64,000 bases of DNA from contig JAVJWO010000047.1 of NCBI GenBank assembly GCA_040222015.1, forward strand, positions 96,001 to 160,000. Direction: 5' to 3'. A model generated the notes under the pieces. The model saw nothing but the letters and a program-made list of their open reading frames with translations, searched no databases and had not been told where the DNA came from. This DNA comes from Coleofasciculus chthonoplastes F2-STO-03 (lineage in GTDB: Bacteria; Cyanobacteriota; Cyanobacteriia; Cyanobacteriales; Coleofasciculaceae). Positions 19,360-23,655 of the stretch are shown one piece after another (positions within the stretch are counted from its first letter, which is position 1; the number at the start of each line of letters is the position of its first letter). A program made the position numbers and the translations under genes.

Positions 19360-20256
19360 ATGGCAACGGAAGCGAGAGCGGTTCGTTTCCAGATTGGAAA
19401 CATTGAGGTTTCTGGTTATCAGCTAACCTCTGATCAGGATCAGCGTCTGTTGTTCACCCACAGGCAAATCGCCGAAGTCGTGGGTAAAAGCAAGGGAACA
19501 GCGCAAAAGTTTTGTAAATCAAACGAAAACAACTTGCCAGAAACCGTCAAGACTGTGGTTCCGGATAAACCCAGACCGATCGCGTTATCATCCTGGGATG
19601 CAGCCGTAGCGTTTTGGCAACATCAAGCTAATGCTGGGAATGAGACAGCAACAGCTTTGGTAGAAGCAGCGCGTTCCACACCACCAGAGACTCTCCAGAT
19701 TGAACCAGCGAGTGAGATAGAGCCAGTTGAGACATCCTATCCCAAAGACATCGAAGGCGCGATCGCACAATTACCCCAAACCGATGAATTCCCCCTTGAT
19801 AACCAACTCCAGCAACTGGATCAGGGGTTACGGTTAATCGCTAAATGGTTAGAAGAAGCGGGATTGGATCAACGTGCGATCGCGTCTTGGAAATTGAATG
19901 TACTCACCCAGCGTTTTCCGGCTTTAGCCAGTGCTGCGAATCAAGCACAGCAGCTTTTAGTCACCCATTCGGTTGAGGAGCCATCCGGGATGATCGCCTC
20001 CCAAGTGGCTGAGAAGGTGTCAGCGCAATTAGGACGAAAGGTTAAAGCCGCTCAAGTTAACGCCGCACTCCATGAATTAGGCATTCAGGAATGGACTAAA
20101 CCTGGTTCCAGAGAGCGACGACTTACCGAAAAAGGAAAAGAATACGGGCGAGCCATGCTAGCCACATCCAAAACCAATACCTGGAGTGGAGCGCAGTTGC
20201 GATGGTTTGATAATGTTGTTCCTTTGTTATGTGAATATTTGGCAGATTCCAAATAA
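19360..20256 (+). CDS. Phage antirepressor-like DNA-binding protein (KilA-C/ANT-like C-terminus)
   Basis: N-terminal HTH-like FTHRQIAEVVGKS; C-terminal AAQVNAALHELGIQ...LTEKGKEYG. Confidence 0.55.
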   Translation: MATEARAVRFQIGNIEVSGYQLTSDQDQRLLFTHRQIAEVVGKSKGTAQKFCKSNENNLPETVKTVVPDKPRPIALSSWDAAVAFWQHQANAGNETATALVEAARSTPPETLQIEPASEIEPVETSYPKDIEGAIAQLPQTDEFPLDNQLQQLDQGLRLIAKWLEEAGLDQRAIASWKLNVLTQRFPALASAANQAQQLLVTHSVEEPSGMIASQVAEKVSAQLGRKVKAAQVNAALHELGIQEWTKPGSRERRLTEKGKEYGRAMLATSKTNTWSGAQLRWFDNVVPLLCEYLADSK

Positions 20257-20279: not shown

Positions 20280-20759
20280 TTAGCCGTAATCTATCGGTAA
20301 TGACAGAGGTTGTGTTGGATTCTCGGTACTCCACTGCTCTAGAATCTTTTGCAAACGAGCTAAGGCATCTTCATCGCTACTAAACTTAATTTCAGCAATA
20401 ACAGTGGGGATACCTCTAGGAAACCGTGATATATTCTTATCTTTTTCGTAAAGTAGAATCAACGGGATATTATGGATTTCTGCATAAGCTAATTCCATCC
20501 CAACGCCAAAAGAAGGACAACCCAGGTAGGCGATGACTAAATCTGACGAACTAACTTGGCGCTTGTCTGTCTCAAAAACTTGTCGAGCGCTAACATCAGG
20601 GTTATTAATCGGATCGGTTTTGAGATGGGGAACATAGACTTGAAATTCCATCGTTTCACAAAGCTCCCCAATCGCTTCATAAAATGCCTTGAGTTTTAAA
20701 GGATTTTCAACTCCAGTTAACGCACCTGAAATGTAAATGTGTGCTTGAGTTTGATTCAT
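20280..20759 (-). CDS. Nucleoside 2-deoxyribosyltransferase/DNPH1(Rcl)-like N-glycosidase
   Basis: YISG, D...SDLVIA, PSFGVGMELAYA with catalytic Glu. Confidence 0.85.
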   Translation of the reverse strand: MNQTQAHIYISGALTGVENPLKLKAFYEAIGELCETMEFQVYVPHLKTDPINNPDVSARQVFETDKRQVSSSDLVIAYLGCPSFGVGMELAYAEIHNIPLILLYEKDKNISRFPRGIPTVIAEIKFSSDEDALARLQKILEQWSTENPTQPLSLPIDYG

Positions 20760-20821
20760 AACTTAATGAATAAAGACACCTAAGTTAATTAGTTAATTCA
20801 GGATGATTTATTTAAAAGATA

Positions 20822-21577
20822 TTATTTGGCTTTTAATATCTCGACAACAAAAGGACTTATACCACCGATAACAGCCGCTAAAGAAGCGCCTATCACTGGA
20901 TTAATTAAAGAGGTTACAATACCAATAGCTAAAGCGACAACAGCAAAAGAAGCCATCCCGAATAATCGATTTTGACGTTCCCGTCTTTCCCTCTCTTTCT
21001 CTTCTTTTATTTCTCGCTCCTGTCGTTGTTTTTCTTGATTAGCCTTCTCTCTAAGCTGCTGTTTTTCTTGACTAGCCTTTTCTATAAGCTGCTGCCAGAT
21101 GTCATCTCTGTCAGGAGGTCTTCCAACAGACACTTTAGCTTGAGAATCTACTCTGAAAAAGCAAACTGTGCAGAAAGAATCTCCCAGTCGAAGTTCTACA
21201 GGACTATCGCGATAGTTGTGGCAAGAAATTAAAAGTTTACCAGTCCATCCGGGATCTACAGTAGTAGAGATGTGAGATAATCCTTGAGAATTAACCCGTG
21301 TAGCCATGGCATGAATAGTTGCTCCCACCTCCCTTGATAAAGTTATAGACTCCAACGTCTCAATAACTACTGTATCCCTAGGTTCAATTTCAATTCCACC
21401 GTCTCTTTCAATATTTTCTTCACGTTTATTATTCCAAGAAAATCCTTTTTTTCCAACTCGCAAATCATAACCAACCGGTGTTAAATACTTTTTATCAAAA
21501 GGCTCTATTGAGATTCCTGTATCTGGATCTCTCTTTTGAGATTCTAGTTGTTTTTCAATATCAACATCGCTAAACAC
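20822..21577 (-). CDS. dCTP deaminase/dUTPase-fold protein with coiled coil and two C-terminal TM helices
   Basis: GYDLRVG, ETLESITL, VDPGWTGKL; E/K/R/Q-rich coil; two terminal hydrophobic segments. Confidence 0.85.
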   Translation of the reverse strand: MFSDVDIEKQLESQKRDPDTGISIEPFDKKYLTPVGYDLRVGKKGFSWNNKREENIERDGGIEIEPRDTVVIETLESITLSREVGATIHAMATRVNSQGLSHISTTVDPGWTGKLLISCHNYRDSPVELRLGDSFCTVCFFRVDSQAKVSVGRPPDRDDIWQQLIEKASQEKQQLREKANQEKQRQEREIKEEKERERRERQNRLFGMASFAVVALAIGIVTSLINPVIGASLAAVIGGISPFVVEILKAK

Positions 21578-21619
21578 AGTTCCTTGACCTCAACTATTAG
21601 TTTGGGTATGAGATAACGG

Positions 21620-22162
21620 TTATACGCTAGCTCTAGCAACAGACGTCGGCTTTAATAAAAATGATGCCGCTCTGTTTGCTGTTTCATCAGATAGCTGAAT
21701 TTTTTTCAGGGTAACTAAACCCTCATTGATAAATGAATCTCTAACCAGAATGCTTCCTCCACTGTTAAAGGGAGTTTCATAAAAGACTTCATGGATGCCA
21801 GCAGAAATGATCAGTTTTAAACAAGAAAGACAAGGTTCTAGGGTGACGTAAATACTGGCATCAGTCGTCGCAATGCCATGTTTAGCCGCTTGTGCCAGCG
21901 CATTGGCTTCAGCGTGAACAGCGCGAGATGGCATCTCTTTACTGGCATCACAGCTACTTAAACCTGGGTAGCAATATCCCTGTTCTGTACAATGAGCTGA
22001 TCCGGCGGGTGATCCATTGTAGCCAGTGGCTAAAACTTGTTTGTTTTTAACAATTACTGCACCAACCGGAAAAGCCAAGCACGTTGAGCGAGTAGCGGCA
22101 AGTTTTGCCAGCATGAGGAAGTATTCATCCCATGTTGGTCGATCTTGATCAAATGGTGTCAT
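21620..22162 (-). CDS. dCMP deaminase (ComEB/DCTD family)
   Basis: RPTWDEYF, ATGYNG, HAEANA, PCLSC zinc motifs. Confidence 0.93.
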   Translation of the reverse strand: MTPFDQDRPTWDEYFLMLAKLAATRSTCLAFPVGAVIVKNKQVLATGYNGSPAGSAHCTEQGYCYPGLSSCDASKEMPSRAVHAEANALAQAAKHGIATTDASIYVTLEPCLSCLKLIISAGIHEVFYETPFNSGGSILVRDSFINEGLVTLKKIQLSDETANRAASFLLKPTSVARASV

Positions 22163-23655
22163 TTACTATCCTGGGTATAGAGCTTATTCGTTTTCAGTGA
22201 TTCAGCGGCTTTCTGTAACTCCATTCCTAAATAAGCGGCATGATCGGGTTGAATAGCTGGGGAAGCTGCACAAATTTCCCTGATCAGCGTTAGGGGATTT
22301 TTGCCTGAATAGCAAGCAACGACTTCACCACTACCCGGAGTTGTTTGTTTAACAACGATTTTGTTGGCGTCAATTTCAATTAAAAAGTTACCCGCCGGGT
22401 CATAAAAGTCTCGATTCCGACAAATTGCAGGATATTGTTTTCGGATTAACTGATCTGCATTTTCCCAGGTATCATCATAAATATGAGCGCTCTGACTGAT
22501 AGTAATCAATGGTCCCATTCGCAAATCATAACTAGAGCGCTGGGCAATTTCGTCTCGGATGTACTGTTGCAGGGCGCGTAGTCCCATGGCGTTCGAGGGC
22601 CACGCCATGTACATATCATTACTGCGGAGAGTCGCAGTCAGGGATAACTCATTATCGACAACCCTCGCCCAAAGGTGATTCAGACAAGGACTACCCCCTT
22701 GTTCGTGATCCTTAACATCCCACAGAGACATCACGGCACTTGCCGCATCAATTTCTCCAATTAATTTAGTAATAATCTGCTCAATTTGGTCTTTGCCAAA
22801 CCATGAACGGAGGCGTTGACCGTAAGTATATTTCACACCTTCTCGATAAGGCGCATCATCTAAAATTTGGTGAATGTACTCCTGAATAAAAGCGCGATCG
22901 CAGGGTAAATAGTTGGGTTCAGGGAAATAGAACCCTGGGGGTTCATCCGTCACCACCGCCATCAAATCAATTAATTCTTGCCATTGCCCATCATAACCCG
23001 TGGGACGAATGGTTCCAGTTGTTTTAATCCGATGAATAATTTTGACCCAGGTTTCAGCAATCGTCTTGCCTTCGATTCGATGTCCGTAGCGCGGTCCCGG
23101 TAAAACTGTTGGTACGGCTTCAGTTAGGGGAAATTCTAGCGGCGCACCCCAGGGTTCAACCCTATCCCTCACCGCATAAGACTTTACCTGACTCACCGCT
23201 TCAGCCATTGATTTCGCCTCTTGCCACTCCACCGATTGCCGGAGAGTCTCCAAAGCATTAGCCTCAATTTCAATATCGATATAGCCAGGAATCGCAGATC
23301 GAATCACCCAACAGCGACGCCCTGTATCGCTGAACCCTTCAGTAAAACCATTGCGGAAGAAGTCTAATAAGCATATCCCACCCCCAGCATTTTTGTCTTC
23401 TTTCGTAGCGTTGAGAACCAGAAGGTAGCGGACATGAGGATTCGCTAATAGATTCCGGATCAGCAGGCTGATACCCCGTGTCGGACTATAGAGTTGACCG
23501 ATAACAGCAAACTCATGAGGTTGTAACTGTTTGGCGATCGCACCTTTAACCGTCCAACCTGTAACCACCGCCGTCTGACCCGTACCGTAAATGAGCTGGT
23601 TGGGCTTGTGTAGGGGTTTGTACTGGAATTGAGTAATCTGAGCGCTAGCTGTCAT
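22159..23655 (-). CDS. Thymidylate synthase (archaeal-like ThyA) fused to an N-terminal MtrA-like domain and a C-terminal DUF4346 domain
   Basis: YTYGQRL, SPCL, RSNDMYMAWPSN, SAHIY; N-terminal RNLLANPHVRYL; C-terminal DPAGNFLI...HAAYLGMELQKA. Confidence 0.85.
   Translation of the reverse strand: MTASAQITQFQYKPLHKPNQLIYGTGQTAVVTGWTVKGAIAKQLQPHEFAVIGQLYSPTRGISLLIRNLLANPHVRYLLVLNATKEDKNAGGGICLLDFFRNGFTEGFSDTGRRCWVIRSAIPGYIDIEIEANALETLRQSVEWQEAKSMAEAVSQVKSYAVRDRVEPWGAPLEFPLTEAVPTVLPGPRYGHRIEGKTIAETWVKIIHRIKTTGTIRPTGYDGQWQELIDLMAVVTDEPPGFYFPEPNYLPCDRAFIQEYIHQILDDAPYREGVKYTYGQRLRSWFGKDQIEQIITKLIGEIDAASAVMSLWDVKDHEQGGSPCLNHLWARVVDNELSLTATLRSNDMYMAWPSNAMGLRALQQYIRDEIAQRSSYDLRMGPLITISQSAHIYDDTWENADQLIRKQYPAICRNRDFYDPAGNFLIEIDANKIVVKQTTPGSGEVVACYSGKNPLTLIREICAASPAIQPDHAAYLGMELQKAAESLKTNKLYTQDSK

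Follow-up and report, generated by a model that had tools for sequence, protein, structure and literature searches.

A Dcd-fold membrane protein and an NDT-type hydrolase beside a housekeeping thymidylate gene pair in Coleofasciculus chthonoplastes: a putative accessory guard module

The window analysed here is a 64,000-nucleotide stretch of the genome of Coleofasciculus chthonoplastes F2-STO-03 (contig JAVJWO010000047.1, positions 96,001 to 160,000), a filamentous cyanobacterium with a genome of 7.7 Mb that is 99.99% complete. Its subject is a group of four open reading frames (ORFs), all on the minus strand at 20280..23655, which encode a thymidylate synthase (TS) fusion, a dCMP deaminase, a Dcd-fold protein with transmembrane (TM) helices, here called DcdTM, and a candidate N-glycosidase of the NDT superfamily, here called NDT:

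22159..23655, minus strand: TS fusion, 498 aa; PF00303 and PF14251, with a weak PF04208 (MtrA) match
21620..22162, minus strand: dCMP deaminase, 180 aa; PF00383
20822..21577, minus strand: DcdTM, 251 aa, GTG start; PF22769 (DCD)
20280..20759, minus strand: NDT, 159 aa; PF05014

The deaminase ORF overlaps the TS ORF by 4 nt, and gaps of 42 nt (deaminase/DcdTM) and 62 nt (DcdTM/NDT) follow; the co-oriented, tightly spaced arrangement described in an earlier note on this DNA is thus real. A two-component pair flanks the operon on one side and a core region, ORF298-cobO-adk-rph, on the other. A scan of the locus for promoters and terminators returned chance-level numbers (6 versus 6.9 and 5 versus 3.3, respectively).

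The base composition of the two downstream genes differs in degree. DcdTM has a GC content of 0.390 and a third-position GC content (GC3) of 0.254, at about the 1st percentile among 3797 long, mechanically called ORFs of the genome; NDT is less extreme, with a GC3 at about the 7th percentile, so that the earlier description of both genes as AT-rich holds for DcdTM and in milder form for NDT. The GC content of DcdTM also lies below that of the adjacent TS gene in 24 of 24 cyanobacterial loci. HIP1 is missing from DcdTM and NDT, as had been observed, yet it is missing as well from the deaminase gene, from cobO and from 39% of 5000 random 1.3-kb segments of the genome; its depletion is not significant, carries no weight as an argument and was rejected as a sign of foreign origin.

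The TS fusion combines an MtrA-like N-terminal domain (residues ~42-163), a short archaeal-type TS core (~194-407) and a PterinBD-DUF4346 domain (419-496). Judged by its sequence, it is the housekeeping dTMP synthase and the only dTMP source here, because the genome holds no second TS and the fusion retains dUMP-type residues and alternates with ThyX among relatives. It is the sole PF00303 match in the genome, in which ThyX, dihydrofolate reductase (DHFR; PF00186) and the dUTPase families PF00692 and PF08761 were not found. The hallmarks of ThyA are the catalytic Cys, the RSxD motif, the Asn that specifies dUMP and the H-x-Y motif, and all are present (C324, R344-S345-N-D347, N355 and H391/Y393); across 16 homologues C324, R344 and N355 are invariant, and S345, D347, H391 and Y393 nearly so. 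Among 61 relatives, a sample that includes kin and whose counts are hence non-independent, 26 carry the TS fusion, 30 carry ThyX, none carries both and 5 carry neither, three of these last being less than 90% complete. Three Nostoc records outside this sample do have ThyX near the TS fusion (L031, L035, L047). The ratio dN/dS is 0.06-0.07 in five pairwise comparisons. A Foldseek search placed a phage dCMP hydroxylase at the top, with nearly equal scores across the TS superfamily; it returned TS-superfamily matches only and was uninformative on the MtrA-like and DUF4346 domains. The fusion shares its TS core and catalytic residues with the short archaeal-type ThyA (TIGR03283) but adds the MtrA-like and DUF4346 domains and scores 124.8 bits against a cut-off of 174.55. 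With no PF00186 DHFR found in the genome, cofactor recycling may fall to these extra domains or to another reductase. This ThyA-type synthase, here without PF00186 DHFR and standing in for ThyX in about half of the relatives surveyed, is a housekeeping enzyme that has gone unstudied. A second TS-like protein of 568 aa with a long C-terminal extension adjoins the fusion in two genomes, G038 and G060 (L082:4634-6340 and L106:865-2571), and a PC motif is present in the copy of G038 but not in that of G060. The fusion also occurs outside cyanobacteria, in a Bacillota operon of the order DcdTM - HAD - ParB-CE - three-domain TS (L052:5959-9479).

The deaminase is a stand-alone, Zn-dependent enzyme with the HAE...PCxxC signature (PF00383, 94.9 bits) and probably supplies dUMP to the TS. 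It occurs in 19 of the 61 relatives, adjoining TS or ThyX, and in two of them it sits with thyX and dut; in 10 of the 19 no DcdTM was found. Fusions of NDT to a deaminase exist in L015/L106, L024 and L133.

In DcdTM a charged coil is followed by two hydropathy maxima, 2.29 at residues 211-229 and 1.83 at 229-247, and an AF2 model (pLDDT 92) predicts a Dcd/dUTPase domain (1-150), a helix of about 70 residues that includes TM1 (155-225) and a second TM helix, TM2 (227-248). TM segments are near-universal in the family: 124 of 133 representatives have one, as do 78 of the 80 proteins from loci that reach 200 aa. The nearest structures are the archaeal dUTPases 9ln3 and 8y1w, with a root-mean-square deviation of 1.2 A over 149 columns. 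With these archaeal trimeric dUTPases (9ln3, 9ln0, 8y1w) and with Dcd (1xs4; TIGR02274), DcdTM has in common the fold, the DPGW motif and a predicted trimeric state; it differs in lacking the RSS motif and the Dcd Glu and in having a coiled coil and two TM helices in place of the C-terminal lid or arm, dUTPase motif 5 included. Its scores fall below the cut-offs of both families (TIGR02274, 71.6 against 92.8 bits; PF00692, 14.5 against 22 bits).

Residue frequencies over 225 family sequences (84 from loci and 141 representatives) add to this picture. S118 of DcdTM aligns with the E138A position of E. coli Dcd (1xs4), and the Dcd Glu column holds A in 49%, S in 20% and T in 14% of the family, with E outside the top five. 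The RSSxxR motif, in which Ser111 and Arg115 have known roles in Dcd, is not kept: the protein of the window reads MAT.V.S, the family pattern is [KR]V[ST], and 63% of the family have Ser where Dcd has the Arg. The Ser column of dUTPase motif 2 holds V in 90%. The motif-3 Asp (D108) is D in 80% and N in 15%, and R157 is kept in 73%. The family has a signature of its own, H89, S90, H102, T105, P109 and N121, of which H89 (78%), S90 (86%), H102 (79%), T105 (95%) and N121 (98%) were counted; H102 aligns with H121 of E. coli Dcd, a residue that takes part in dTTP inhibition. Loss of the Dcd Glu and of the RSS motif, together with retention of a family-specific pocket, suggests that DcdTM is probably a pseudoenzyme, and many proteins annotated 'dCTP deaminase' are probably not deaminases. 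DcdTM is also predicted to form a trimer: a three-copy model scores 0.87 against 0.00 for the best control, with contacts that agree to at least 89% and pLDDT of at least 84, on a score whose mark is reached by 20 of 30 proteins solved as pairs and by 1 of 23 solved as single chains; this pass may stem from, and shows only, likeness to solved Dcd/dUTPase trimers. In the model the subunit interfaces include the signature residues and TM2, and residues 231-246 of TM2 touch between copies. G017 has a more distant Dcd-fold TM protein (L017:1201-2052), which lies outside the thymidylate locus in the company of MazG_C and DUF1643 genes.

NDT scores above the PF05014 cut-off. Rcl is the best PDB match to its profile (E 6e-7), Rcl, BlsM and MilB all match (E 6e-7 to 1e-3), and a single-sequence search ranks MilB first. 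Y9, H45, D65, E89 and S111 are invariant in 13 homologues; the His, Asp, Glu and Ser align to Rcl, and Tyr9 presumably corresponds to the DNPH1 Tyr, which lies outside the printed alignment. NDT is thus proposed, on these motifs, to be an NDT-superfamily N-glycosidase of the Rcl/DNPH1 type and a putative eraser or sanitiser. It shares the fold with Rcl/DNPH1, MilB and BlsM; its similarity to all of them is too low to assign a substrate, and it differs from them in being tied genomically to a TM protein.

Comparison of congeners shows that the site itself varies. After ORF298, three genomes carry TS-deaminase-DcdTM-NDT (G000, G002, G007), three carry dcd-thyX (G001, G003, G004) and one carries dcd-DcdTM-thyX (G005); G006 is cut by a contig end and G008 is broken at this slot. 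ORF298 itself (19360-20256, plus strand, 298 aa) is 90-93% identical in the congeners checked, has no Pfam family and only weak helix-turn-helix- or transposase-like matches, and marks the left edge of this swappable thymidylate slot. The thyX gene at this locus is split in congeners by an intein-like insert (L010:2214-3470, L098-L100), and the dcd gene of G038 carries an intein (L082:7879-8937). Farther afield, the four-gene order is kept in many cyanobacteria, and because the DcdTM-NDT cassette recurs at the site in many cyanobacterial families, it is not a recent arrival there. In G025 and G060 the TS is 82-83% identical to that of the window, yet DcdTM is only 49% and 18% identical, respectively, which implies module exchange. 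The closest named relatives of DcdTM, at 80-83% identity, are Coleofasciculus records. DcdTM evolves under purifying selection but faster than the TS (dN/dS 0.20-0.26 versus 0.06-0.07 in the same five comparisons). Because it was not found in 15 of the 26 TS-fusion genomes and is disrupted elsewhere, by an insertion sequence in L040, by an in-frame deletion reaching into NDT in L047 and by splits in L077 and L139, DcdTM counts as accessory.

NDT, by its distribution, goes with DcdTM. It occurs in 9 of the 61 relatives and in 9 of 221 genomes sampled across the phylum (G000 and G042 are in both samples, and 100 of the 221 come from one family without any match). All nine NDT genes of the phylum sample lie within about 1 kb of DcdTM; the same holds for eight of the nine in the relatives, and beside the remaining one a TM tail of DcdTM type stands at the contig edge. 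The co-occurrence on which the earlier note had made its proposal depend is therefore observed, and it favours the alternative offered there, a two-gene cassette docked onto a housekeeping thyA-dCMP deaminase pair. DcdTM was found in 20 of the 221 genomes, and in 19 of these it adjoins TS, thyX, dcd, dut or deaminase genes.

A wider view was gained from a DcdTM profile search, which matched 8723 representatives at E <=0.001 (ordinary Dcd included) and 420 at 1e-30. Partners were counted for 140 distinct proteins, each at least 200 aa long, carrying a TM segment and matching at E <1e-12; shorter and TM-less matches were dropped, and the set is biased toward the cyanobacterial queries. A pyrimidine-nucleotide enzyme is encoded within 800 nt of DcdTM for 110 of the 140 across phyla, for 86 of the 99 with full flanks and in 28 of 41 clusters at 50% identity. 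The partners are TS (49), NDT (43), deaminase (43), dcd (22), Nudix (19, a label taken from Atlas with a score of 0.98), dut (17) and ThyX (11). The Nudix-like partner (L053:7686-8330 and relatives) is a protein of about 210 aa that matches no Pfam or NCBIfam model and accompanies 19 DcdTM proteins in bacteria and Bathyarchaeota. On a quick tree without bootstrap, NDT pairs with two separate DcdTM clades, and dut, Nudix and NDT alternate in well-supported clades. Canonical dut and dcd both adjoin DcdTM in L059-L061, L077 and L093, and dut alone in L057, so DcdTM is no mere stand-in for either. dUTPase is specific for dUTP, and its interchangeability with NDT and Nudix therefore suggests a putative dU-type ligand for DcdTM.

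Neighbouring genes are suggestive of a link to defence. DcdTM lies inside type I restriction-modification loci (L095, L067), in G018 as a DcdTM-dut pair within the operon. Prophage-like loci carry it as well (L018/L019 and L020, the latter with DcdTM-dut after a lysin), as do two Bacillales plasmids, one with SIR2-DcdTM-dut and one with DcdTM-dut, plasmid proteins having been assigned without regard to TM segments. Among the 5 of 10 plasmid loci inspected, two have dut and one lies near a uracil-DNA glycosylase gene. Kinase-deaminase genes that match the PADLOC dCTPase model adjoin DcdTM in L072, L213 and L219/L220. From 82 hand-picked proteins near DcdTM, 25 match PADLOC models at 1e-5 and 14 at 1e-30, one of the 14 being an ABC ATPase that is probably housekeeping; the matches include three dCTPase-like kinase-deaminases, restriction-modification genes and ThsB, CARF and PDC models. 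IMG/VR holds three DcdTM loci by one alignment and none by another. A ParB-CE gene is among the neighbours of DcdTM in L052, which links the family to 'CE' conflict systems; in L058 an HD-CE gene is found four genes upstream.

Taken together, these observations favour, at a probability of roughly 0.5, a reading in which a housekeeping pair running dCMP -> dUMP -> dTMP is accompanied by an accessory DcdTM-NDT module, with DcdTM as a putative dU-nucleotide-gated membrane effector and NDT as its eraser. As a trimer in the inner membrane, DcdTM would hold its Dcd-fold head in the cytoplasm and there bind, without turnover, a deoxynucleotide of the dU type, perhaps dUTP or dUMP, or in clades paired with NDT possibly a 5-hydroxymethyl-dU nucleotide. 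The long helix would pass the binding event on to the bundle of TM helices, and the resulting membrane damage would stop the infected cell. The signal would rise when a phage floods or blocks the dTMP pathway, whether because breakdown of host DNA feeds dCMP through the deaminase faster than the TS consumes it, because the TS is inhibited, or because the phage makes U- or hmU-type nucleotides. NDT would hydrolyse basal dUMP or 5-hydroxymethyl-dUMP (hm-dUMP) and so keep DcdTM off, a role that dUTPase or Nudix proteins may fill in other clades. The earlier proposal that the TM protein senses and the hydrolase resets is in essence retained, as an interpretation for which partner swapping across the DcdTM family speaks.

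Several observations weigh against this guard-module reading. The cyanobacterial DcdTM genes sit at a fixed housekeeping site near cobO-adk-rph rather than in a defence island, and are under purifying selection, with no positive selection seen in pairwise dN/dS. Retention of the motif-3 Asp in most of the family and closest structures that are active dUTPases make residual hydrolase activity possible, and an NDT acting on dUMP would be expected to compete with the TS. No partner was detected for 30 of the 140 DcdTM proteins, 2 of the 5 inspected plasmid loci have no nucleotide-related neighbour, and the list of defence neighbours was hand-picked without a background control. Among PADLOC models there is no match to DcdTM (best E 0.011) nor, at 1e-5, to any of four other Dcd-fold TM proteins; none to DcdTM was obtained among 50,697 GenBank phage records either.

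A rival reading takes DcdTM to be an active, membrane-tethered and divergent dUTPase-like pyrophosphatase of dUTP or a modified dNTP, which with NDT and the deaminase would form a sanitation or depletion pathway without membrane damage, for example from hm-dCMP through hm-dUMP to base and sugar phosphate, as with mammalian DCTD and DNPH1. D108 and R157 are kept in most of the family, archaeal dUTPases are the best folds, NDT is fused to deaminases in places, and the genome of the window has neither a recognised dUTPase nor any other DCD-family gene; in mammals a deaminase followed by DNPH1 constitutes a clearing route for hm-dCMP (PMC13184875). Yet the motif-2 Ser is almost always Val, the C-terminal dUTPase motif is lacking, the motif-3 Asp is sometimes Asn, and a canonical dut often stands next to DcdTM. 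Absence of dut is moreover normal in this group, in which just 7 of the 61 relatives have it, and the near-universal TM anchor is left unexplained, all of which makes this pathway an unlikely account, if one to be taken seriously. Less likely still is that DcdTM senses dTTP/dUTP status for metabolic ends, signalling to or scaffolding a membrane partner and tuning dTMP supply without lethality. Adjacency to thymidylate and dU-nucleotide genes in nearly all loci of the phylum sample, long residence at a core locus, the alignment of H102 with H121 and purifying selection would all suit such a regulator; its patchy presence and disruptions, its GC content consistently below that of the TS, the plasmid and prophage copies accompanied by dut alone and the lack of any conserved signalling partner seen do not.

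The model first advanced for this locus in the earlier note treats the four genes as a single system dedicated to signalling, in which the TM protein receives a special, modified nucleotide produced by the TS-like fusion; it now appears highly improbable. The conserved gene order, the extra MtrA-like and DUF4346 domains, the lack of PF00186 DHFR, the Nostoc records with ThyX near the fusion and the phage dCMP hydroxylase heading the Foldseek list are in keeping with it, although that search hardly separated members of the TS superfamily. Against it, the genome has no TS other than the fusion, which has the invariant dUMP-type Asn355 and never shares one of the 61 genomes with ThyX; DcdTM was not found in most fusion genomes or in over half of the deaminase genomes, and it also adjoins ThyX.

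Extended beyond this locus, the guard-module reading leads to a bolder and more tentative proposal: a class of immune effectors spanning phyla, with DcdTM as its founding member, in which a catalytically dead trimer of dUTPase/Dcd type opens a membrane lesion in the presence of dUTP or dUMP, ordinary intermediates of metabolism, and guards the essential thymidylate pathway from inside its housekeeping operon, with a swappable eraser (NDT, dUTPase or Nudix) and with the dTMP route itself (ThyX plus Dcd, or TS fusion plus dCMP deaminase) swapped between congeners under phage pressure. If the guard-module reading holds, nucleotide-sensing immunity would gain a further sensor fold, new to it, and a signal that is a pyrimidine, and defence would be shown to reside within a core operon, out of reach of island-based searches. 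No description of a Dcd-fold TM effector or of a three-domain TS was found in the titles and abstract openings of the literature searched; NAR papers on related nucleotide-centric systems (Nicastro 2023, Iyer 2013, Burroughs 2015) may already mention the architecture.

Among known defence systems, the anti-phage dCTP deaminase (NF041025, PADLOC dCTPase) shares its Zn-deaminase domain with the deaminase of the window. That protein is a kinase-deaminase fusion, however, whereas the 180-aa enzyme here has no kinase domain and scores 91.1 against a cut-off of 400. Kongming, CBASS and Pycsar convey a nucleotide signal to an effector, TM effectors among them, and use a dedicated cyclase or ADA with HAM1 and SIR2. 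The proposed DcdTM module resembles them in coupling a nucleotide signal to an effector and in the use of a TM effector; it differs in that neither the scan of ORFs nor inspection of the locus revealed a cyclase, HAM1 or SIR2 gene. Closest in logic is type II Metis, which pairs the three-TM effector MisC with the HAD eraser MisB and is triggered by m6dAMP, and whose authors anticipate further types, methyl-cytosine sensing included (10.1101/2025.11.05.686725); the guard module proposed here would be of the type so anticipated. Both would combine a mononucleotide-triggered membrane effector with an enzyme that clears the basal signal, a logic read here from the genes. DcdTM differs in having a Dcd/dUTPase-fold sensor with two TM helices and a putative pyrimidine ligand, in being partnered by NDT, dUTPase or Nudix (HAD only in L052) and in lying inside a housekeeping operon. 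With MisC compared by description, the chances are about even that DcdTM-NDT works like type II Metis, as an analogue and not as a member.

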